The position numbers and the translations under genes are program-made. Shown piece after piece: positions 9,970-63,112 of a DNA stretch of 63,613 nt (positions within the stretch are counted from its first letter, which is position 1; the number at the start of each line of letters is the position of its first letter). Below the pieces are notes generated by a model that saw nothing but the letters and a program-made list of their open reading frames with translations, was not told where the DNA came from and did no database searches. Source of the stretch: a virus (lineage: Duplodnaviria > Caudoviricetes); IMG/VR virus record IMGVR_UViG_3300044638_006592, positions 1 through 63,613 of that record; one strand, written 5' to 3'.

Positions 9970-9996
9970 ATAGATATTTATAATAAAAAAAAGAAA

Positions 9997-13954: not shown

Positions 13955-14884
13955 ATGAACACTGAAAATTTATATGATGCCCTTGGAGTTTCAGAAACCG
14001 CAACCCAAGATGAAATAAAGAAGGCTTACCGAAAATTGGTGATTGAACATCATCCTGATAAGGGTGGTGATGAAAGTAAATTTAAAAAAATCGCTCATTC
14101 TTATGATACTTTAGGTGACCCCAATAAACGAGCACAATATGACAACCAAAGAAAGAATCCATTTGGAAACCAAAACGGAGGGTTTAACCCATTTGAAGAC
14201 TTCTTTAATGGTGGTGGATTCTATAATCAAAGAAAAAGAAGTGCTCCTGAAAAAGTAATTGACCTTACAATTGGTGTGATTGAATCATATAAATCTGTTA
14301 ACAAAACTATAACATATAGAAGAAATATTGAATGTAATACTTGTCATGGTAGTGGTGGAGATAGAAAAACATGTGATACTTGTAAAGGTGAAGGATTCTC
14401 AACAGTAAGAGTTGGAACTGGAATGTTTGTACAACTTATGAGACAAGTATGTAATACATGTAGAGGAAATGGTTATGTATTAACAAAAAAATGTACGACC
14501 TGTGATGGAAATACCACAAAAAATGTTACAGAAACAATCGATATCAAATTACCACATGGAGTTGATGAAGGTCAATTCTATAGACTTGAAGGAAAAGGTG
14601 ATTTCTCAAAAGGTATGTATGGTGATTTAATACTAAGAATTAAAATAGCTCCACAAGATAACTTCGAGAAATTAAATAATGATTTAGTGTATAACGCTTA
14701 TCTAGGTTTTGATGACCTTCAAAAAGATTCATTGGAAATACCACATCCATCAGGAACAGTTTCCGTTAAATTACCAAAAGAATTTGATTCCTCAAAACCA
14801 CTTAGAGTTAAAGGAAAAGGATTTAGTACCAACGGAGTTGGGGATATGTTTATTAAACTTATTGTTAAGTTCAATAGGAATTAA
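13955..14884 (+). CDS. dnaJ: DnaJ chaperone
   Basis: J domain with HPD, G/F-rich linker, four CxxCxGxG-type repeats, C-terminal domain. Confidence 0.95.
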   Translation: MNTENLYDALGVSETATQDEIKKAYRKLVIEHHPDKGGDESKFKKIAHSYDTLGDPNKRAQYDNQRKNPFGNQNGGFNPFEDFFNGGGFYNQRKRSAPEKVIDLTIGVIESYKSVNKTITYRRNIECNTCHGSGGDRKTCDTCKGEGFSTVRVGTGMFVQLMRQVCNTCRGNGYVLTKKCTTCDGNTTKNVTETIDIKLPHGVDEGQFYRLEGKGDFSKGMYGDLILRIKIAPQDNFEKLNNDLVYNAYLGFDDLQKDSLEIPHPSGTVSVKLPKEFDSSKPLRVKGKGFSTNGVGDMFIKLIVKFNRN

Positions 14885-15596: not shown

Positions 15597-16148
15597 TTAT
15601 TGTTTTGGTGTATACTCCCTCAATTTGTCGGTATCTTCCAACAGGTATGGTGTTGGATAAAAGAGACCCAAAGGTGTATACTCACTCAATTTGTCGGTCT
15701 CTTCCAACTTATCCATCAATTCTACTGCTCGAGGTTGAGGTGTATACTCCCTCAATTTGTCGGTCTCTTCCAACAAACTATCGTCATTGATGCAGGTCAT
15801 GGCGGGTTTATACTCCCTCAATTTGTCGGTCTCTTCCAACTGGCGTGAAGTTGGCACATTGTCCATCATTGGTGTATACTCCCTCAATTTTTCGGTCTCT
15901 TCCAACCATATATTCATAATTGATTGAATTTCAGTGTACTCCATACCAAAAAATGACTCAAAAAATGACCAAATTTGATTATAATCAATCCAAAATTTCT
16001 TAGTTTTTAAATCTTGGTTAATTACAAAAATATCACCTTTTTTATAAAATATAGAATTTGGATAATAATCATGTTTGTACATTTTCATTTTATCCAAGTT
16101 AAAATTATCATTTAACCACTTTAACTTAATCTTTGTTAATTTATCCAT
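15597..16148 (-). CDS. Small phage protein (paralog of 31698..32048) whose C-terminus reads through a CRISPR-like array
   Basis: Shared YPxSIFY...QDLKxKxF...IWxFFESFFGMxY...IWLEET; then LEETDKLREYTP five times at 22 aa period. Confidence 0.75.
   Translation of the reverse strand: MDKLTKIKLKWLNDNFNLDKMKMYKHDYYPNSIFYKKGDIFVINQDLKTKKFWIDYNQIWSFFESFFGMEYTEIQSIMNIWLEETEKLREYTPMMDNVPTSRQLEETDKLREYKPAMTCINDDSLLEETDKLREYTPQPRAVELMDKLEETDKLSEYTPLGLFYPTPYLLEDTDKLREYTPKQ
15607..15906 (-). CRISPR. CRISPR-like mini-array 1: 5 x 36 bp repeats, 4 x 30 bp spacers, no cas genes in window
   Basis: Repeat GTTGGAAGAGACCGACAAATTGAGGGAGTATACACC (minus strand) at 15607-15642, 15673-15708, 15739-15774, 15805-15840, 15871-15906; spacers unique and exactly 30 nt. 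Confidence 0.8.
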
Positions 16149-16198: not shown

Positions 16199-16375
16199 TT
16201 TTCACCATTAAGGTTGAGGTATTTCTACCCGAATCGAAACTCCCGATTCTTGGAGGTTGGGTTTTCTTCCCCAGGATTTCCCGACATTCCTTTTCACCAT
16301 TAAGGTTGAGGTGTTTCTACCCGAATCGATACCCCCGATTCTTGGAGGTTGGGTTTAAGGATTTCCCAACATTCC
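16199..16375 (-). ncRNA. Tandem pair of ~90 nt GC-rich structured repeats; putative small RNA
   Basis: Copies at 16199-16290 and 16291-16375; GAATCG/CGATTC stem conserved while loops vary; bracketed by a promoter and a terminator. Confidence 0.5.
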
Positions 16376-16386
16376 CGTTTGATGAT

Positions 16387-16419
16387 ACAAAGATAAGCCA
16401 ATTTTTTGAATTTACAAAA
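16387..16419 (-). promoter_or_regulatory. Bacteroidota sigma70-type promoter
   Basis: Minus strand TTTTGTAAATTCAAAAAATTGGCTTATCTTTG fits -33 TTTG / -7 TAnnTTTG. Confidence 0.65.
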
Positions 16420-16438: not shown

Positions 16439-16535
16439 TAGTCAGGACAGGATTCGAACCTGTTCCACGGCAAGTGATTGGTACTGACCTTTCGGTTACT
16501 CCCATTTCCGCCCGCTACCATTACGGCACCTGACT
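16439..16535 (-). tRNA. tRNA-like RNA or pseudo-tRNA; no assignable anticodon
   Basis: Acceptor AGTCAGG/CCTGACT, D-loop-like AATGGTA, perfect T arm ACAGG-TTCGAAT-CCTGT; central region long and non-canonical. Confidence 0.6.
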
Positions 16536-28319: not shown

Positions 28320-28533
28320 AGAACATGTAAATCATCCAGAACATTATGGTGGGGCGGGAAATCTTTATGAAGCGATAAAAGTTATTGACGCTTGGGACTT
28401 AGGGTTTTGTTTAGGTAATACGGTTAAGTACATATCAAGAGCCGGTAAAAAAGACCCTAAGAAAGAACTAGAAGACCTTAAAAAGGCTCTTTGGTATTTG
28501 AATCATCACATTGAAAAGTTGGAAGGTAAATGA
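28309..28533 (+). CDS. DUF3310 (SaV / T7 gp1.7-like) protein
   Basis: VNHPEHY...GFCLGNTVKYISRAGKK...EDLKKALWYL. Confidence 0.9.
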   Translation: MENKEHVNHPEHYGGAGNLYEAIKVIDAWDLGFCLGNTVKYISRAGKKDPKKELEDLKKALWYLNHHIEKLEGK

Positions 28534-29318
28534 ATGCACCAGTAAGGTATTACGGAAGTAAAGGAGGTTTCTACAATAAGATTATTGAATTTTTTCCTAC
28601 TGATGGTTATGATAAATATATTGAACCTTTTGCGGGTACATTCATAGTAGGTTTAAAAAAACCAATCACAAAAATTGAAGTGTACAATGATATGGAGAAG
28701 AATGTATATTCTCTATATAAAGTAATATCGGATAAAGAATTGTTCCAACAATTTAAAGAAAAGTGTGATTTGGTTTTTTATTCTGAAGATATCAGGAAAG
28801 AATTTAAAGAAGAACTTAAAAAAGAATTATCCATAGTTGATAGAGCATTTTATTTCTTTTATGTGAATAGGACATCTCATAATGGAATTGGGGGATTCTC
28901 AATGAATACTCATGTAAGAAGAGGGATGAGTAAAGCGGTTTCAGATTTTCTATCGGCAATAGACAGACTACCTGAATTACATGACAGATTATCAAAAGTT
29001 ATTGTTACAAATACTGATGGTATTAAGTTAATTGAAAAATATAATAATCCAAATACATTACTATATTGTGACCCACCTTATGAACAGAGTACAAGAACTG
29101 GTGCAAGATATAACGTAGACATGGATAGAGAAGGACATGTTAATTTTTTAAATTCTGTAATCAATAGTAAATCAAAAATATTGATTAGTGGATATGATTG
29201 TGAATTATATGATACATTGATTGAGAATGGATTTACAAAACATCAATTTGATGTTAAAACAATTGATGGTAATTTTGAAAAGAAAACAAAAGTTGAAACT
29301 GTTTGGAAAAATTATTAA
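28530..29318 (+). CDS. DNA adenine methyltransferase (Dam/D12 class)
   Basis: YYGSKG, YIEPFAG, EVYND, YCDPPY, ETVWKNY. Confidence 0.9.
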   Translation: MNAPVRYYGSKGGFYNKIIEFFPTDGYDKYIEPFAGTFIVGLKKPITKIEVYNDMEKNVYSLYKVISDKELFQQFKEKCDLVFYSEDIRKEFKEELKKELSIVDRAFYFFYVNRTSHNGIGGFSMNTHVRRGMSKAVSDFLSAIDRLPELHDRLSKVIVTNTDGIKLIEKYNNPNTLLYCDPPYEQSTRTGARYNVDMDREGHVNFLNSVINSKSKILISGYDCELYDTLIENGFTKHQFDVKTIDGNFEKKTKVETVWKNY

Positions 29319-29338
29319 TATTATAAAAAAACAAAAAA

Positions 29339-30190
29339 ATGATTGAAAATTACGTTGGTAAAGTATTAAATGGTGATTGTATTGAGGTGATGTCAGAAAT
29401 ACCTGAGTCATCTGTACATTTGGTGGTTTGTAGTCCTCCATACAATGTTCAGATTCCTTATGACACCCACAAAGATGATTTACCTATGAGTGAATATTGG
29501 GATTGGACTGAGAAATGGTTAACACAGGTTTATCGACTACTAAAGGATGACGGTAGAGTTTCAATCAATATTCCTTATGAAGTAAATGTTCAAGAAAGGG
29601 GTGGTAGAGTATTTTTTGTGTCTGAATTTTATCAGGTAATGAAAAAAGTAGGTTTCAAGTTCTTTGGTATTATTGATTTGGAGGAAGATAGTCCACATAG
29701 AAGTAAGACTACAGCTTGGGGTTCTTGGATGAGTCCATCAAGTCCATATATATACAATCCAAAGGAATGTGTAATATTGGGTTATAAAAAACAACATGTA
29801 AAAATAGTTAAAGGTCAACCTCAATGGACTGGTGAGTTAGTTGAACAGGAAGATGGTAAGAAGAAAATGATATACAAGGAAGAAGATAAGAAAGACTTTA
29901 TGGAGTTAGTATTTGGACAATGGAAATACTTGAATGATAGTAGACCTTTAACTAAGGCAACTTTTAGTATGGACATTCCAACAAAAGCAATAAAGATATT
30001 AACATACAAAAACGATATTGTTCTTGACCCATTCGCAGGAAGTGGAACCAGTTTGGTTGCTGCTGAGATATTAGATAGACGATGGATTGGAATTGAGTTA
30101 TCACCAAACTATACGGAAGTTGCAAGAAAACGAGTCTCAACATTTAAATTAGAGAAACAACAATTAAATTTAGAATTTGAAAGAGGTTAA
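29339..30190 (+). CDS. DNA methyltransferase, N4/N6 beta class
   Basis: GDCIE, SPPYN, VLDPFAGSGT, WIGIELS. Confidence 0.9.
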   Translation: MIENYVGKVLNGDCIEVMSEIPESSVHLVVCSPPYNVQIPYDTHKDDLPMSEYWDWTEKWLTQVYRLLKDDGRVSINIPYEVNVQERGGRVFFVSEFYQVMKKVGFKFFGIIDLEEDSPHRSKTTAWGSWMSPSSPYIYNPKECVILGYKKQHVKIVKGQPQWTGELVEQEDGKKKMIYKEEDKKDFMELVFGQWKYLNDSRPLTKATFSMDIPTKAIKILTYKNDIVLDPFAGSGTSLVAAEILDRRWIGIELSPNYTEVARKRVSTFKLEKQQLNLEFERG

Positions 30191-30613: not shown

Positions 30614-31695
30614 AAAAAATACTTATGAAAACAAAATCACTTAATGAGAATGAATTGAAAGAAAAAATCTTTCAAATCTATAAAGAGGAAGAAATAAAAA
30701 TATTCGAACAAAAATGGAATAGTTTATCTTCTGATGATAAAAAATTTGTTTTGGAGTTCTTAAAAGTTCTTCATCCTGAAAAATCTAAATTATTGAACGA
30801 AGCAAAATGGTATAATACTGTTGGAGATATTGCAGGTATATTTGACCCTACAGGAACTGTTGATTTGATAAATGGTATTAGTTATTGGAAACAAGGTGAC
30901 CATTTATTTGCTTTATTATCTTGGATTTCAGTAATTCCTTATGTTGGTGATGTGGTAGCTAAACCAGTAATTGGTGTTTTTAAAGCGGGAGGAATTATTG
31001 GTAAAGAATTTAAGGCTGCTATGGTTGCTGGTGATGCCGCTAAAATAGCATCAACGGCAAAACAATCAGGACCACTTAAAATATTTGTTGAGAGAGCTCC
31101 AATTTGGGGTGGTGAATTAATAAAAATGTTATCCGGATTTATAAATAAATTTCCAATAGTTAGACGTATCATTCCACTCATCGAAAATTATGTTAAATTA
31201 TTTAAAAGTGCTTCAGTTGAAATGAAGACCGCGAGTAAAGCAGGTAAAGAAGCGGAAGCGGTATTTAAAGGGTTTAGAGAGTTTGGTGGAGTTAAGAATA
31301 ATTGGTTGAAATATATGAAATCAAACGCACCTCTTTGGGAAAAATTAAATGCTGGCAGTTTTAGATTATTCGGAGGTAATCCGGCAACAAGGTCATTAAT
31401 GAGAAGAAGTAAGTGGTATTTAGGATTTTTGGATGCTGTTGGATTAGCGAATACTGTAGGTCCTGAAGAAGTTGAATCTAAAGTTCCTGATTTCGAAGCA
31501 AAACTTGATGAATACAATAGAAGTCCTCAAGCTCAAAGAAATATGGAACAAGACGTTGCAAGTTCAAAAGTTGAAGCGGTTCCACCTCCACCTACATCAA
31601 CAAGTACATCATCACCAATTCCAACTGACCCATTTACATTATTGGGTTCATTGTTTGGTGGTTCATCATCAGGTCTTGGTAAAGTTTTATCGTAA
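30598..31695 (+). CDS. Phage protein with pre-toxin TG-like hydrophobic segment
   Basis: DIAGIFDPTGTVDLING...LLSWISVIPYVGD; start probably MKTKSL near 30625. Confidence 0.5.
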   Translation: MDWIIKKILMKTKSLNENELKEKIFQIYKEEEIKIFEQKWNSLSSDDKKFVLEFLKVLHPEKSKLLNEAKWYNTVGDIAGIFDPTGTVDLINGISYWKQGDHLFALLSWISVIPYVGDVVAKPVIGVFKAGGIIGKEFKAAMVAGDAAKIASTAKQSGPLKIFVERAPIWGGELIKMLSGFINKFPIVRRIIPLIENYVKLFKSASVEMKTASKAGKEAEAVFKGFREFGGVKNNWLKYMKSNAPLWEKLNAGSFRLFGGNPATRSLMRRSKWYLGFLDAVGLANTVGPEEVESKVPDFEAKLDEYNRSPQAQRNMEQDVASSKVEAVPPPPTSTSTSSPIPTDPFTLLGSLFGGSSSGLGKVLS

Positions 31696-31697
31696 AT

Positions 31698-32048
31698 ATG
31701 AAATATCTTATAACGGAATCAAAAGTAAGGGAAATTGCGTTAAAATGGATGAATGATAATTTTAGTCCAGACCAATTGGAAATTGTTAAAAGTCCAAAAT
31801 ATCCTGACTCAATTTTTTACAGAAAAAATGGTCAAGTTGTTATGGAACAGGATTTAAAAAAGAAAAATTTTTACTTTCATTATGATGAAATTTGGTTATT
31901 TTTTGAATCGTTTTTTGGTATGAAATACTCTGAAATAGAACAACTTATGGAGATATGGTTGGAAGAGACCCTTAATTTAGAGGAATATACACCTATCAGT
32001 GAGTACGTAATCAATGGCATTGGTGGTTGGAAGAGACCCTTAATTTAA
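31698..32048 (+). CDS. MKYLITES-family protein whose 3' end is repeat 1 plus spacer 1 of CRISPR-like array 2
   Basis: Paralog of 15597..16148; LEETLNLEEYTP is encoded by the 36 bp repeat. Confidence 0.8.
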   Translation: MKYLITESKVREIALKWMNDNFSPDQLEIVKSPKYPDSIFYRKNGQVVMEQDLKKKNFYFHYDEIWLFFESFFGMKYSEIEQLMEIWLEETLNLEEYTPISEYVINGIGGWKRPLI

Positions 32049-32323
32049 AGGGATATACACCTAGATTATGGTTTTAGGTTGCCATCAGCTAGTTGGAAGA
32101 GACCCTTAATTTAAAGGGATATACACCTTTTCATAATAAATTCTATTTTATTGTTACGTTGGAAGAGACCCTTAATTTATAGGAATATACACCTCAATAC
32201 CGCGATAAAAATGGACGGACAGGTTGGAAAACACTCTCAATTTAGAGGGATATACACCCAATGATTCAGGTATATCGCAGATGTTTTAGTTTAAAAATAC
32301 TCTCAAATTAAAACAGAATCACC
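31958..32323 (+). CRISPR. CRISPR-like mini-array 2: 5 x 36 bp repeats plus one degenerate terminal repeat; spacers 32/30/30/29/30 bp
   Basis: GTTGGAAGAGACCCTTAATTTAAAGGGATATACACC-type repeats at 31958, 32026, 32092, 32158, 32223; degenerate copy 32289-32323; internal CCCTT/AAGGG stem. Confidence 0.85.
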
Positions 32324-32659
32324 TTCTCGAATACCTAATTTTTTACAGGTATTACCTTTCAATTCAAGTATGGTATCACCAGTTCCAAAATAGTTTGGAC
32401 AATCTTCAGTTTCACAAGGAGGACAATTATGGTGGATTTTTGTAATAACATTATCTTCAATAAAAATAATGTCTAATGGTATAATGCAGTTTTTCATCCA
32501 AAATGCGTGTTCACCTGAGTTCATCAAAAATAACATACCATTAAATGTGTTATCAAAGTTTTTACCCATCATACCTTTTGAGGTATCTTTTTGAGAAAAT
32601 ACAACTTTGACTTTGAATTTGTGATTTCCTATATTTATTAACATAACTATAAATATCAA
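32303..32659 (-). CDS. DUF192 family protein
   Basis: GMLF...FWMKNCIIPLDIIFI...ILELKGN...LGIREGD. Confidence 0.85.
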   Translation of the reverse strand: MIFIVMLINIGNHKFKVKVVFSQKDTSKGMMGKNFDNTFNGMLFLMNSGEHAFWMKNCIIPLDIIFIEDNVITKIHHNCPPCETEDCPNYFGTGDTILELKGNTCKKLGIREGDSVLI

Positions 32660-33191: not shown

Positions 33192-33644
33192 TTGTTGAGT
33201 ATGGGAAATAATATTCAAATAAAGAACAGAAAAGTTTCATTTGAATATGAGATTATTGAGACTTATACTGCCGGAATCGTACTTCAAGGAACTGAGGTTA
33301 AAATGATTAGGGAAGGTAAAGTATCAATGGTTGACAGTTATTGTTATTTTAGTGATGGTGAACTATTTGTTAAAAATTTATTAATAAACGAATCTAAATC
33401 TTTTTTCACTCACAAACCTGACAGAATTAAGAAACTTTTGTTGAAGAAACAAGAATTAGTTAAGATTGAGAATAAACTTGTTAAGGGATTAACGTTATTA
33501 CCATTCAAGTTATTCACGAATGAGAAAGGTGTAATAAAAATTGAGGTTGTATTAGGTAGAGGTAAAAAATTGTATGATAAGAGAGAGAGTTTGAAACTGA
33601 AAGATATAAAGAGAATACAAAATTGTCAACTAAAAATAAAATAA
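33192..33644 (+). CDS. smpB: SsrA-binding protein SmpB
   Basis: NRKVSFEY...AGIVLQGTEVKMIREGK...KLLLKKQE...GRGKKLYDKRE. Confidence 0.95.
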   Translation: MLSMGNNIQIKNRKVSFEYEIIETYTAGIVLQGTEVKMIREGKVSMVDSYCYFSDGELFVKNLLINESKSFFTHKPDRIKKLLLKKQELVKIENKLVKGLTLLPFKLFTNEKGVIKIEVVLGRGKKLYDKRESLKLKDIKRIQNCQLKIK

Positions 33645-34361: not shown

Positions 34362-35156
34362 ATGTTAAATAGAATTACTGAACAGCCATTTTACCAAACC
34401 CGTGTTAGTGGCAGTACTTTTGTGAACGCTGACTGCTTTGATGTTTTTCCTTTTATTGAGGACAAATCAATTGATGCTATTATTTGCGATTTACCTTATG
34501 GAACTACTAACTGTAAATGGGATTCTGTTTTGGATTTGAATAAACTTTGGGAACAATATAAACGAATACTAAAAGATAATGGAGTGGTAATTTTATTTGC
34601 ACAAACACCATTTGATAAAGTGCTTGGTTGCTCAAATTTGGAATGGTTAAAATACGAATGGATTTGGGAGAAAACACAAGCAACAGGATATTTTAATGCA
34701 AAGAAAATGCCTATGAAAGCACACGAAAATATTTTAGTATTTTACAATAAAACTCCAAAGTTTAACCCACAAAAAACAGAAGGACACAAGCCTGTAAACA
34801 CCTATACCAAGAAAGCAGAAGTTTGTAATAAAACAGAAGTGTATGGGAAAGTAAAACAAGATGTAAGTGGTGGTGGAGAAACTGACAGATACCCAAGAAG
34901 TGTGCAAGTTTTTTCTTCAGATAAACAGAAAACAAAACTTGATGGAACTATACATCCTACACAGAAGCCACTTGCTTTACTTGAAATGCTTGTAAAATCA
35001 TATACAAACGAAAGCGATATGGTATTGGATAACACAATGGGTTCAGGAACAACAAACTTGGCTTGTATCAAATTAAATCGCAAATCAATTGGTATCGAAA
35101 AGGAAAAACAATATTACGATGTCGCTGTTCGGAGGGCTTCGGAGTATTGCCACTAA
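34362..35156 (+). CDS. Cassette 2 DNA methyltransferase, N6/N4 beta class
   Basis: ICDLPYGTT, KYEWIWEK, HPTQKP, VLDNTMGSGTT; stop codon is the TAA of the next TAAC. Confidence 0.9.
   Translation: MLNRITEQPFYQTRVSGSTFVNADCFDVFPFIEDKSIDAIICDLPYGTTNCKWDSVLDLNKLWEQYKRILKDNGVVILFAQTPFDKVLGCSNLEWLKYEWIWEKTQATGYFNAKKMPMKAHENILVFYNKTPKFNPQKTEGHKPVNTYTKKAEVCNKTEVYGKVKQDVSGGGETDRYPRSVQVFSSDKQKTKLDGTIHPTQKPLALLEMLVKSYTNESDMVLDNTMGSGTTNLACIKLNRKSIGIEKEKQYYDVAVRRASEYCH
34380..34407. repeat. Right half of an attC-like site (left arm apparently deleted)
   Basis: GCCATTTTACCAAACCC-GT-GTTA followed by GTGGCAGTAC, complementary to the cassette end at 35144-35157. Confidence 0.6.
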
Positions 35157-56113: not shown

Positions 56114-56416
56114 ATGAAATATCTAATAACTGAGTCAAAGTTAAAACAGACATTATTCAAATATTATGATTCAATTTTTGAAGATTGGTATTTTGTGGAA
56201 AATGGTGATTGGGAAGGAGTGTCAGTTCCAAAATATAATGGTGAACTTTTAATCGGTTATAAAAAAGATGACCCAAATACTGGTTATTATTGGGGTGATG
56301 TAATAGGTATTGATTTTATTGAATCTTTATTTGGGTTACCAAATGATGAACAAAAACAATATTTAAAAGAATATGTGGAGGAAAAATTTAATTTAAAATT
56401 TGACACTTTAATGTAA
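56114..56416 (+). CDS. MKYLITES-family protein
   Basis: Leader MKYLITESKL; tail KEYVEEKFNL. Confidence 0.65.
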   Translation: MKYLITESKLKQTLFKYYDSIFEDWYFVENGDWEGVSVPKYNGELLIGYKKDDPNTGYYWGDVIGIDFIESLFGLPNDEQKQYLKEYVEEKFNLKFDTLM

Positions 56417-60122: not shown

Positions 60123-60455
60123 ATGAACTTACAAGAATCAATTAGAAAAGTATTAAGAGAGGTCAAAGAGGAATTCGAAGACTTCGCATCAACCCGTGGA
60201 AAAGGGGCTGAAAAAATTGCAAATAATGCAAAAGAAAAAGGGGGTTTAGCTCTCTTAACTTGGCATCATTTCAAAGTTAAATTACCATATTACAACAAAG
60301 CAAAAGAGGGGAAGATAGACATGGATGAGGTAAAAAAGGAATTTGATGCCACATACAAAAAAATATCATTAAATATGACTCAGATAGAGTTCCAAAGAGA
60401 AATGGGTCGATTAGAAGTTTTGGGCGAATTGTTAATTAGAAACAAAAAAGACTAA
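60123..60455 (+). CDS. Phage protein with MNLQESIRKVLRE leader
   Basis: Leader motif; ATATTTAT upstream. Confidence 0.6.
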   Translation: MNLQESIRKVLREVKEEFEDFASTRGKGAEKIANNAKEKGGLALLTWHHFKVKLPYYNKAKEGKIDMDEVKKEFDATYKKISLNMTQIEFQREMGRLEVLGELLIRNKKD

Positions 60456-60478
60456 ATTAAGTTACAAGAAAACATTAT

Positions 60479-61069
60479 ATGAGATTTATTATTACTGAAA
60501 CACAATATAAAAAGTTTTTAACTTCTAGCTCTAAAATGAGTGACTCGATAAAGAACTATTTAAATACATATATTTCAAATGGTAAACGAAAAATAGGGAT
60601 TAAATCTCGTAATTATGGTAATTTACGAGAAGATTGGTGTGTTAAGGGAAAAGAAACCATTACTGCAGTTTACTATTTTGAAAATGGAGAACCCATCCAA
60701 GGAAATTTATATGTTTCAAAATCACTTATCGATGAAATACAATCTTTTTTTAGTGTGAGAAAATCATATGTAATTCAAATAATTGAGGAATGGTATGATG
60801 AAACTATGGTTCCTGAATTTGAAAAAATAATAGGTGAAAGTGGTTTACATATAACGGATATTAATGACATTGAAGAACATGATTGTATTTCTGAACCAAC
60901 AAAACCTGAAGGAATTACTGATGAAGAAATGATTGATTTTATTGATAAGAATACTGCATATAGAAGAGTGGAAATCATTGATAAAATTAAAACAGGGGAA
61001 AGAGACCTTGAAGATTTCTATTTGGACATTGTAGATACTGTAGAAAGAAAAAAACAATTAGGTTTTTAA
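60479..61069 (+). CDS. Phage protein with MRFIITE leader
   Basis: Leader motif. Confidence 0.6.
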   Translation: MRFIITETQYKKFLTSSSKMSDSIKNYLNTYISNGKRKIGIKSRNYGNLREDWCVKGKETITAVYYFENGEPIQGNLYVSKSLIDEIQSFFSVRKSYVIQIIEEWYDETMVPEFEKIIGESGLHITDINDIEEHDCISEPTKPEGITDEEMIDFIDKNTAYRRVEIIDKIKTGERDLEDFYLDIVDTVERKKQLGF

Positions 61070-61079
61070 AACTATTAAT

Positions 61080-61556
61080 ATGAATTTACAAGAAACCATA
61101 AAGAGAATATTGAGGGAAGAAAGAGAAATATCAACTAAATTATTGAGAAGACTTAATTTTGATATATTGGATAAAGGGTTTAATGACGCATTAAACATTT
61201 CCTCAATTAGATATGTTAAACACATTGACAAATGGAATAATATGACATTGGAAAAATTTAAGAACATGGTCATATCGATGATGATGGATGATGTTTTTTT
61301 TAAAATTGTGGGTTATGACGAATCGTATGATTCTTTATTTGATGAAATATTTGAATTTTTGATGGAATATTATTCATCAGATATGGAGAAAACATATAGA
61401 TTTTTTCAAATCGGTAAGTTACCTAATTATAAAACAAGGGGAGAACAAAATGAGTCAGAACTAACAGAAAAGTGTTGGAAAGGATATACTCAAAAGGGGA
61501 TGAAAACAATGTTTGGTAAGAGATACCCAAATTGTGTAAAGAAAACGAAAAAATGA
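61080..61556 (+). CDS. Phage protein with MNLQETIKRILREE leader and C-terminal CWKGY...PNCVK module
   Basis: Motifs seen directly. Confidence 0.6.
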   Translation: MNLQETIKRILREEREISTKLLRRLNFDILDKGFNDALNISSIRYVKHIDKWNNMTLEKFKNMVISMMMDDVFFKIVGYDESYDSLFDEIFEFLMEYYSSDMEKTYRFFQIGKLPNYKTRGEQNESELTEKCWKGYTQKGMKTMFGKRYPNCVKKTKK

Positions 61557-62149
61557 GATTAGAAGAAACCATAAGAAGAATATTAAGGGAAGAAACTCAG
61601 GGTATTAATAAATTTATTGATACAATAGATTCCAAATTTAGATTATCGGAAGATTTAAAACAATTTTTGATTGATTTTATTAATAAATCAAATTGTAAGA
61701 ATATTGAGTTTTCAGGATTTAAAGCGCCAGCATTTGGTTTTGCTTTACATGATGGTGTACTAATTAATAAAATCATTTTAAATAATCAATTAGATTTTAT
61801 ATTGTTTGTTATTTTTCATGAGGTTGCTCACCAGTATCAATTTAAGAAATATGGTGTTGAAAAAATGTATGAATGTTATGTTGGAGATATGAGTGTTGAA
61901 GATGCTGCTAAATTCATGAAAAAAACTGAAGAAGTTGCTGATGATTTTGCCGCAAGAAAAATGAGAGAATTATATAAAAAAGGGTTAATTGATAGGTTAT
62001 ATATTGCACCTCAAATGTATAAAAATATGCCATTGAGTCAATTGATATTTATGATAAGTAATTATAAAAATCAGATGAAGAGTAAGAATATAACATCACC
62101 TGAGAAAATAAGTGAGTTTTTTTATAATATGGTTAAAAGTGAATTATGA
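61532..62149 (+). CDS. HExxH zinc-metallopeptidase-like protein with RRILREE leader
   Basis: FHEVAHQYQ...EEVADDFA; likely start MRLEET. Confidence 0.65.
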   Translation: MCKENEKMRLEETIRRILREETQGINKFIDTIDSKFRLSEDLKQFLIDFINKSNCKNIEFSGFKAPAFGFALHDGVLINKIILNNQLDFILFVIFHEVAHQYQFKKYGVEKMYECYVGDMSVEDAAKFMKKTEEVADDFAARKMRELYKKGLIDRLYIAPQMYKNMPLSQLIFMISNYKNQMKSKNITSPEKISEFFYNMVKSEL

Positions 62150-62517
62150 GATTACAAGAAACCATAAGAAGAATATTAAAAGAAGAATCCAAAAGAGATG
62201 AGATAATAGATTTATATCTAGCCAAAAGGATTTCATCTTTTACAAAATTTGATATGAAAGACGGATTACATCCAAGAATAGAATTTGTTGATGATAAATT
62301 ACACCATACAATGGTTGTAATAGATTTTAATAGACGTACACAGAAAAATGAGGTTCATATGGATGATAGTTTATATGGTGAAATATATAATATGTTTTCT
62401 ATGGATGGTTTTGAAGAAATACAAAAACATTTAAAAAGATGGTTTTCTAATAATTTTGATGGATTAAATGATATAAGTGAAATAGACACATTTGAAAATG
62501 ATGAATACATATATTGA
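62146..62517 (+). CDS. Phage protein with MRLQETIRRILKEE leader
   Basis: Leader motif; LKRWF tail. Confidence 0.6.
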   Translation: MRLQETIRRILKEESKRDEIIDLYLAKRISSFTKFDMKDGLHPRIEFVDDKLHHTMVVIDFNRRTQKNEVHMDDSLYGEIYNMFSMDGFEEIQKHLKRWFSNNFDGLNDISEIDTFENDEYIY

Positions 62518-63112
62518 TATGAACTTACAACAAACCATAAGAAGAATATTAAGGGAAGAAACCGAAATTCCTTTATTTATTAAAAGGAGATTCACACCTG
62601 AAGACCTTGAATGGTTAATTAACGATATTAAAGAATTAATTGAATTTGGTGAAAGTTTGGATACCGCAATTTATGATGGTGTTAGAGAATTTATTAAAGG
62701 TAAAAAATTTTCAGACATAGATGAGTTTGGTGATGAACAATCTTATTGGGATTCTTATTTAAAATATGAAAAACCATTGGTTAAATATGTAAAAGATAAT
62801 ATAAGCAATACACGGATTACCGAAGAAATCGGTGACAAAAAACACGATAAGTCCAGATTAATAGAGAAGTTATTATATACCACATTTGTTATACCAAATA
62901 AAGATATTGTATGTAGTGTTGAGGTAAAACATCCTGATGATAGGGAAGTACTGGAAGGTCAACCGAAATATATTAGTTATAGTATAACAATAACATTTAT
63001 TGGGGAAATTAGAACAAATACGTTAGGATTAATGAATGAAGTGTGGGGTATTGTATATGACTATACAAACACACCATGTGATATATATTCCAAGTACGTT
63101 AAAGAGTGTTAA
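62492..63112 (+). CDS. Phage protein with MNLQQTIRRILREE leader
   Basis: Leader motif; likely start near 62519. Confidence 0.6.
   Translation: MKMMNTYIDMNLQQTIRRILREETEIPLFIKRRFTPEDLEWLINDIKELIEFGESLDTAIYDGVREFIKGKKFSDIDEFGDEQSYWDSYLKYEKPLVKYVKDNISNTRITEEIGDKKHDKSRLIEKLLYTTFVIPNKDIVCSVEVKHPDDREVLEGQPKYISYSITITFIGEIRTNTLGLMNEVWGIVYDYTNTPCDIYSKYVKEC

Follow-up and report, generated by a model that had tools for sequence, protein, structure and literature searches.

Can a CRISPR array grow inside a protein-coding gene of a phage and, if so, what writes it and to what end? The question is raised by a locus in IMGVR_UViG_3300044638_006592, an IMG/VR virus record of 63,613 bases and 28.5% guanine plus cytosine (G+C) that was analysed over its whole length (hereafter, the window). 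A small gene, gene B, runs directly into a series of 36-nucleotide (nt) direct repeats separated by unique spacers (array B), the first repeat lying within the open reading frame (ORF); a paralogue, gene A, ends in a second such series, array A. In both, the 3' end of a small conserved phage gene doubles as array leader and first repeat. Arrays A and B may be phage CRISPR-type arrays without CRISPR-associated (cas) genes, written in trans and used via host immunity against competing elements, a reading to which we give a probability of about 0.45, somewhat below even. A CRISPR-type array growing inside a conserved gene, across a family of lake phages, is new relative to the known intergenic virus-borne arrays, with a real chance of more; a keyword search of the open-access literature found no published counterpart of arrays that begin inside an ORF, which is no proof of absence.

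Arrays at the 3' ends of paralogous genes

Gene B (31698-32048, + strand, from the ORF list) is a small phage ORF of 116 amino acids (aa), and array B (31958-32324, same strand) consists of five 36-nt repeats and a decayed sixth, with unique spacers of 29-32 nt. Repeat 1 (31958-31993) is the leader-repeat junction, the site where new units appear. The gene-B frame translates it as (W)LEETLNLEEYTP, the 12 residues with which the folded part of the ORF ends, after which the 32-nt spacer 1 (31994-32025) shifts the frame so that the ORF stops within repeat 2; the initial annotation had described the junction in this way, and the ORF and array coordinates bear it out. Repeats 2-5 start at 32026, 32092, 32158 and 32223 and are separated by spacers 2-4 of 30, 30 and 29 nt (32026-32258 in all). 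They are followed by the 30-nt spacer 5 and the decayed terminal repeat 6 (32259-32324, the repeat itself at 32289-32324), which on the side away from gene B extends into the 3' terminus of a convergent DUF192 gene (32303-32659, - strand). The array B consensus is present in four copies at no more than two mismatches and gave no match in 100 shuffles of the window. The repeats decay away from the gene, as had also been noticed at the outset: repeat 5 is a variant that departs from the consensus at 5 of 36 positions (counted on the sequences), and repeat 6 agrees with repeat 5 at only 22 of 36 positions and with the terminal repeat of the relative L011 at 25 of 36. The repeat is of the form GTTGGAAGAGAC...ACACC.

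Gene A and array A lie on the - strand (15597-16148). The two genes are 54% identical over 97 residues and both arrays begin at the same Trp-Leu-Glu-Glu codons. Array A has an exact 66-nt period, with five repeats (GTTGGAAGAGACCGACAAATTGAGGGAGTATACACC; 15871-15906, 15805-15840, 15739-15774, 15673-15708 and 15607-15642) and four 30-nt spacers, and one 183-aa ORF spans all of it, with a stop two codons past the last repeat. Two loci with different spacers had been taken to argue for a real gene-plus-array system; the arrangement does occur twice in the window, and beyond what was then proposed, the design is conserved over a large phage gene family. The window also holds a third, distant paralogue without an array (56114-56416, + strand, 29% identity), which keeps the C-terminal ...YVEEKFNLK motif.

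For residues 1-92 of gene B, AlphaFold2 predicts an alpha/beta domain (mean predicted local distance difference test score, pLDDT, 87.6) in the order helix, four strands, helix, helix; the last helix (residues 77-92) takes in the first six codons of repeat 1. The Trp and acidic motif at this place, W-x-E-E-T-x-x-L, is conserved in array-less family members too. Since the motif is kept without arrays, the repeat is in the first place a piece of the gene, which accounts for paralogues having repeats of their own. A family profile search returned 1599 clusters (at 50% identity) at E<=1e-3 and 368 at E<=1e-10. The protein matches no Pfam family and no PHROG family and has no sequence relative in the PDB; a fold search gave a best Foldseek E-value of 0.098 and a best VIA Z of 4.5, within noise, and an Atlas search returned only viral hypothetical clusters.

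A search of IMG/VR with the gene yielded 26 loci. All ten closer relatives (L009-L018, 40-84% identity) carry an array of 36-nt repeats that starts from the same Trp-Leu-Glu-Glu codons, with other spacers, and distant homologues (26-33% identity) and their neighbours have two further repeat families at the same position, one of the form GTTGAGAATACC...ACACC (translated VENTLQMKVTNT) and one of the form GGTGGAAGAGGT...CACAAC (translated VEEVLNHKVSTT). A scan for the repeat pattern in metagenome contigs turned up 83 stretches, from which 98 arrays were counted on 80 loci; some loci are identical contigs present in two collections, and because IMG/VR and JGI contigs overlap, spacers were counted as unique sequences. 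Of these arrays, 89 lie behind an open frame of at least 30 aa with a terminal Trp (with the family motif in 87 of the 89), so that what stands upstream of repeat 1 is conserved coding sequence and not a non-coding AT-rich leader with a promoter. The remaining nine start no more than 56 nt from the end of the available stretch and are cut. None of the 98 is free-standing and none adjoins a cas gene. The arrays are short, with 2-8 repeats in 84 cases and a single matching repeat in 14, and several pass straight into the next family gene (...LEETYNLKKE followed directly by MKYIITENK...), which gives tandem gene-array-gene-array units.

Some variations on the design were seen in individual lineages. 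In the VENTLQMKVTNT-type arrays (L019, L021, L027, L031) spacer 1 is 31 nt long in all four, with differing sequences, so that the ORF always closes at a TGA within repeat 2 (…LRIPYK*). Homologues that seem to have no array (L020, L022, L023) end in …LRIPYYN*, …LRMPWYN* or …LRIPSN*, which corresponds to a decayed second repeat in that frame. In the array of L110 (- strand, from 3059), the first three spacers open with nearly the same 9 nt (AACTTGGGC, AACTTGGGC and TACTTGGTC), through either a longer repeat in that lineage or a bias in the insertion site.

Spacer turnover and spacer content

Comparison of strains places the growing end of the arrays at the gene, as had been proposed from the decay of the distal repeats: strain variants have distal spacers in common and differ in the proximal ones, contigs from lakes diverge after repeat 1, and terminal repeats are decayed. 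Strain-level spacer polymorphism, which the initial annotation had suggested looking for, was found as fast and polar turnover among relatives. The two distal spacers of array A recur in its orthologue L016, one of them at a single mismatch, and the two proximal spacers are different. Thirteen gene-A-type proteins (P0001-P0013) have a near-identical N-terminal domain and lengths of 139, 161, 182, 183 and 205 aa, that is, in steps of 22 aa; they contain 13 different units in the nested orders abcd, eabcd, eabd, acd, cd, hfcd, fgcd, gd, ijkl and mif, a series in which additions are at the gene end, old units at the far end and losses internal. For array B, the variant P0046 has a new proximal unit, with spacer 4, repeat 5 and the tail the same as in the window; P0014 (95% identical in the alignment) and L009 (84%) have other spacers, and Logan contigs from lake runs X1 and X5 match the window through 31993, the last base of repeat 1, and then continue in a different sequence. 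Spacer 1 of L010 is spacer 3 of L014, and L023 and L030 have two spacers in common.

The gene B locus is nearly complete in 18 lake-water metagenome runs. In runs X1 and X5 there is also a co-occurring form of the genome from which the unit of gene B plus array is absent, with a joint from 31695 to 32309 that skips 613 nt and has two other letters in between. Run X20, considered as a source of RNA, was set aside, as only the flanking parts are covered and it is probably DNA.

The pooled arrays gave 168 unique spacers, of 29 nt (26), 30 nt (98), 31 nt (26), 32 nt (16), 33 nt (1) and 34 nt (1). They thus combine near-identical direct repeats, within the range of 23-50 nt, with unique spacers of similar length (29-34 nt, mode 30). 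The mean G+C of the spacers is 36.7%, compared with 30.0% for the loci. By a codon-usage score derived from these phages, with the best-scoring of the six frames counted for each spacer, the spacers look like coding sequence: z is 10.7 relative to shuffled sequences and 4.0 relative to a first-order Markov null, and a positive control of true 30-mers, from phage genes kept out of the training, reached z = 16.1. At the same time, the best frame is spread over the six frames as 33, 23, 25, 27, 31 and 29 (chi-square p = 0.78) and the inferred strand is forward for 81 and reverse for 87, without bias, where the classifier gets the strand right for 84% and the frame for 76% of real gene fragments. 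A coding signal in random frame and strand means that the spacers behave like low-G+C protein-coding DNA taken in any register, and capture in any register fits an integrase-type process, unlike coding in place. A hint from a small sample that spacers code in the frame of the gene was gone in the set of 168, except in particular lineages.

The spacers look like captured fragments of foreign genes. Spacers derived from the phage itself were not seen: in a complete 294-kb relative, none of four matches its own genome, and none of the eight spacers of the window matches elsewhere in the window. When about 220 spacers were compared with 1.0 Mb of the window and related loci, the 32 matches that a crude filter had flagged as lying outside arrays were all inside arrays on inspection. 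Spacer ends showed no strong positional bias in a search for motifs.

Origin and use of the arrays

If arrays A and B are indeed CRISPR-type arrays that work through host proteins, a Cas1-Cas2-type integrase acting in trans, most likely that of the host, would write spacers at the gene-repeat junction. Each insertion of 36+30 nt would duplicate the last 36 nt of the gene itself, which would account for repeats that are specific to each paralogue. Array and gene would be co-transcribed, and the array RNA may serve a class 2 effector of the host, type VI being the nearest by a weak resemblance of the repeats. Most likely, the purpose would be to direct host immunity at rival mobile elements, a use already suggested for further virus-borne arrays that lack cas genes.

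The phages themselves gave no sign of such machinery within the profiles used. The initial annotation had stated that the window contains no cas genes and had suggested a search beyond it; no match to the Cas1, Cas13a, Cas13b or TnpB/Cas12 profiles was found in the window, which has no ORF above 739 aa, or in any of five phage records, one of them complete, these four profiles being the cas families searched. Four large ORFs near the arrays belong to no cas family.

The label type VI-B, which the repeats had initially been given, fared less well. It stood as far as the 36-nt repeat and the spacers of about 30 nt are concerned; it failed on the paired repeat ends and on similarity. The repeat named for the Bergeyella Cas13b system is genuine, being the commonest repeat (eight copies) beside the Cas13b gene of Bergeyella zoohelcum ATCC 43767 (L056). 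Its proposed closeness to repeat 5 was weakly borne out (16 of 36 positions ungapped; 26 of 37 columns with two gaps), and over the window repeats it agrees at 16-19 of 36 positions ungapped and 24-26 of 37-38 columns gapped. The paired ends of VI-B repeats (GUUG...CAAC) are predicted for the Bergeyella repeat and not for the window repeats, which end in ACACC; in the VEEVLNHKVSTT-type repeat it is the ends that are predicted to pair instead. The panel of arrays compared includes some beside Cas13b (L046, L056, L064, L065), some beside Cas13a (L050, L073, L076), one beside Cas9 (L040) and two beside TnpB/Cas12f-like proteins (L045, L047). The Cas13a-linked repeats are the closer ones, at 25-27 of 36 positions ungapped or 28-29 of 37 gapped in the comparison made alongside the Bergeyella repeat. 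Over the window family they agree at 24-27 of 36 positions and share on average 12-13 of the 25 free positions, where the panel background is 9.3 +/- 4.0. The closest panel repeat (L069, up to 20 of 25 unconstrained positions) lies on a contig of 1.8 kb that is itself phage-like, carrying a baseplate-like ORF and a family gene to which an array is attached. The uncultured Flavobacterium metagenome-assembled genome (MAG) behind it has cas1-cas2 at a contig end and no match to Cas13b, and is linked to L069 by binning, a weak link. The likeness to types VI-A and VI-B consists of 36-nt repeats starting with GTTGGA, spacers of about 30 nt and a predicted array B hairpin placed as in L073; the differences are phage records without a Cas13 match, no pairing of the ends, weak hairpins, with none in array A, and no strand bias. 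Membership of array B in type VI-B is unsupported, and the data go no further than to suggest that it works in the manner of class 2 arrays in the size class of type VI.

Several observations weigh against the reading of the arrays as cas-less arrays used through host immunity. Comparison with known repeats, which had been proposed as a check, brought out the weak resemblance just described, and no matching cellular array. A scan of one genome from each of 185,579 species for paired 36-nt GTTGGA...ACAMC repeats gave 45 stretches, among which no cellular array with the window repeat was found, the best cas-linked repeat agreeing at 27 of 36 positions (Cas13a-linked). A search at no more than three mismatches gave no hit in 401 sampled genomes of one order, that of the MAG behind L069, or in five others. 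Nor were targets found: six 24-nt spacer cores had no match in IMG/VR outside their own arrays (L036, L165, L166), about 220 spacers had none outside arrays in 1.0 Mb made up of the window and related loci, and a search of both arrays and genes against GenBank phages gave only chance-level matches (E >= 0.2). The 81:87 strand ratio is not the antisense bias of type VI spacers, which speaks against selection for RNA targeting. The hairpin is a further weakness. It is predicted at the same positions (12-16/23-27) for repeats 2-3 (CCCUU/AAGGG) and repeat 5 (CUCUC/GAGGG), at the place it has in the Cas13a-linked repeat L073, so that the stem change from CCCTT/AAGGG to CTCTC/GAGGG, pointed out initially, does preserve pairing; yet it carries little weight, as the hairpins are weak, with energies of -5.8 and -6.0 kcal/mol that 32 and 33 of 200 shuffles also reach. 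Array A has no hairpin, and a comparison of 66 unique repeats showed little covariation and no more than three conserved pairs, of which one is mostly G-U. The window had no Rfam family at gathering score, and the repeats no CRISPR-DR match. Finally, lineages with all spacers in frame are unaccounted for by a purely RNA-level role.

Part of this evidence would suit other explanations. The repeats might mimic host CRISPR repeats, plausibly of an RNA-targeting system, and soak up an effector or adaptation complex, with spacer gain as a by-product of the host integrase. Phage repeat mimicry is an established anti-CRISPR strategy, to judge from the available text of one survey (PMC10651486), and the short arrays, the lack of targets found, the absence of strand bias and the resemblance to type VI above panel background would agree with such an RNA decoy. 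We nevertheless consider it unlikely: the known RNA anti-CRISPRs (Racrs) are solitary, non-coding and near a host repeat, and no similar host repeat was found here, the repeats differ strongly both between arrays A and B in one genome and between lineages, a poor fit to the mimicry of a single repeat, and the predicted hairpins are weak. A process unrelated to CRISPR, in which a phage-encoded integrase or recombination puts 66-nt units at the 3' end of the gene and the likeness is convergent, could draw on the complete phage genome that has arrays and matches none of the four cas profiles, on the lack of matching cellular arrays, on a repeat that is always gene-derived and on the genomes of X1 and X5 from which the whole gene B unit is missing. 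However, repeats of 36 nt and spacers whose lengths peak at 30 nt and vary by about 2 nt, combined with the polar addition of units, internal losses and a decayed terminal repeat, make up the signature of Cas1-Cas2 integration, and no other mechanism is known to give this combination; the search for cas genes, moreover, covered four profiles. We find this process very doubtful. An ordinary protein tandem repeat, or a chance repeat, with no acquisition at all can hardly be credited: a 66-nt period corresponds to 22 codons and a single open frame covers array A, but the repeats are identical at the DNA level with unrelated spacers and sharp boundaries, spacers of 29-34 nt break the frame, the coding signal of the spacers is in random frames and strands, and the shuffles exclude chance.

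The open frames bring the protein itself into the argument. As 36 + 30 = 66 nt, each canonical insertion preserves the frame. Pool-wide, 62 of the 168 spacers (0.37) are both 30 nt long and stop-free in the gene frame, a rate per unit at which it is very improbable that long open runs arise by chance. Every one of the 13 distinct units in the series of gene-A strains nevertheless keeps the frame and has no stop, in a series with a lower length limit of 100 aa that would hide forms ending in the first spacer. In the VEEVLNHKVSTT-type arrays (L023, L026, L030), 19 spacers (17 distinct), one of them of 36 nt, are in frame and stop-free, and decayed distal repeats still translate to similar peptides. 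In-frame periodic tails of 22 aa were found in 11 of the 149 family representatives, and in a 760-aa ORF (P0168) the family domain occurs five times, each time with repeat-spacer units (LEEHFKSKGVTP-type) behind it that stay in frame, the whole chain being free of stops. These cases favour a function at the protein level, in which the captured units are translated and the array serves to alter or lengthen the small protein at its C-terminus, yielding variable tails or 22-aa modules as the product, as do the position of repeat 1, which encodes the end of the final helix in a confidently predicted domain, and the conservation of its motif in array-less members. On the other side, frames close early, in spacer 1 or repeat 2, in array B, in L009-L015 and in many metagenome arrays; 70 of the 168 spacers are not 30 nt long; of the 98 spacers of 30 nt, 36 contain a stop in the gene frame and 41-46 in the other five frames, a mild depletion; and the gene frame is the best one for only 33 of 168 spacers, where 28 are expected. 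Such a function seems distinctly unlikely to us, and we are similarly sceptical of a combination in which the captured DNA is translated and the array acts as both RNA and protein. Some lineages would then select in-frame units and so obtain modular, fast-changing proteins, in a phage-autonomous adaptive module, possibly without any known cas gene or cellular counterpart; each acquisition would copy the last 12 codons of the gene and add ten new ones. This combination would cover array A, the VEEVLNHKVSTT-type arrays and the 760-aa chain of five domain-array units. A role of open frames in protecting a co-directional downstream gene from polarity was unsupported (25 open against 23 not for co-directional neighbours, 6 against 9 for convergent ones).

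Among known systems, the nearest to cas-less arrays used through host immunity are the mini-CRISPR arrays of the Sulfolobales viruses SPV1 and SPV2, which are virus-borne, lack cas genes, show spacer turnover in close strains and are thought to use host Cas proteins in trans (PMC6858448, in the part of that report available). Those arrays are intergenic, with promoter-bearing leaders and repeats that resemble the host's, and have one or two spacers that match sister viruses (PMC6858448). The phage arrays described here differ in their coding leader and first repeat, in that no host-like repeat was found, which is a further point against the reading, and in that their spacers were unmatched in the 1.0 Mb searched. 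Huge phages carry compact arrays, with a median of six repeats, without adaptation or interference genes, and use of host Cas proteins against competing phages has been suggested for them (PMC7162821); large genomes, short arrays and the lack of Cas1 and Cas2 are features in common with our case, whereas their repeats are host-like in some cases and the available text of that report mentions no gene fusion (PMC7162821). The RNA anti-CRISPR survey cited above describes phage copies of CRISPR-like repeats without cas genes, and its available text reports solitary repeat units (SRUs) for every CRISPR-Cas type but type VI (PMC10651486). The phage arrays are no such units, which are solitary non-coding repeats nearly identical to that of the host and with their own promoter; here there are 2-8 repeats inside or behind a coding gene. 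Since the search tool of the survey (SRUFinder) masked confident ORFs before looking for repeats, gene-internal repeats like these would have been missed (PMC10651486, as far as its available text goes). In type VI arrays, non-coding leader RNA forms a hairpin with repeat 1, so that sequence upstream of repeat 1 has an effect on the first unit (PMC13187072, available part). The upstream sequence here is a translated gene, and an analogous role for translation would be speculation.

The repeats described here co-evolve with each gene copy, and no match to a cellular array was found. If a host integrase writes the arrays, adaptation machinery accepts coding sequence as leader and repeat, and phages can keep private, rapidly updated records of spacers; if no host system matches, the arrays point to an unrecognised acquisition or effector system. 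The lineages with open frames raise the testable question of whether captured spacers are ever translated.

Phage context and neighbouring features

The source of the window is a large freshwater phage, probably of a Bacteroidota host. CheckV puts the completeness of the window at 22%, so that the full phage genome would measure about 290 kb. The motif TTTG-N17-21-TAnnTTTG, whose consensus is that of the Bacteroidota promoter type, occurs 21 times in the window compared with 5.5 +/- 2.3 in shuffles, and one such motif lies upstream of gene A (16388-16418, - strand). Just upstream of this promoter, at 16439-16535 (- strand), there is a 97-nt Rfam match to transfer RNA that scores 44.4 bits (gathering score 29), is missing from the ARAGORN results and may have an intron or a long extra arm. 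Between the promoter and the start of gene A are two 66-nt direct repeats (16199-16264 and 16291-16356), 95% alike, with small hairpins and no match to an Rfam family, which may be a structured 5' leader. Another motif, …GATATTTATAATAAAAAA…, stands directly upstream of the start codons at 9970, 30211, 41637 and 54518, the operon that ends in gene B among them, and may be a phage-specific promoter.

The genes of the window include an SbcC-like nuclease subunit, NUDIX, a peptidoglycan-binding protein and, by Pfam, SmpB, a full DnaJ and three DNA methyltransferases (33192-33644, 13955-14884, 28530-30190 and 34362-35156); SmpB- and DnaJ-like genes are translation and chaperone auxiliaries, typical for very large phages. 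Between 35142 and 37909 there are five intergenic copies of an element of about 73 nt with a conserved hairpin core (…GATGATAAACAATCGTTTTAATGTTGTTTATCATTTGTTA…), which could be terminator-like or mobile miniature elements. At 60123-62560, a cluster of small paralogous genes with starts MNLQE/MRLEE-TIRRILREE falls into two families and represents another expanded family of small proteins.

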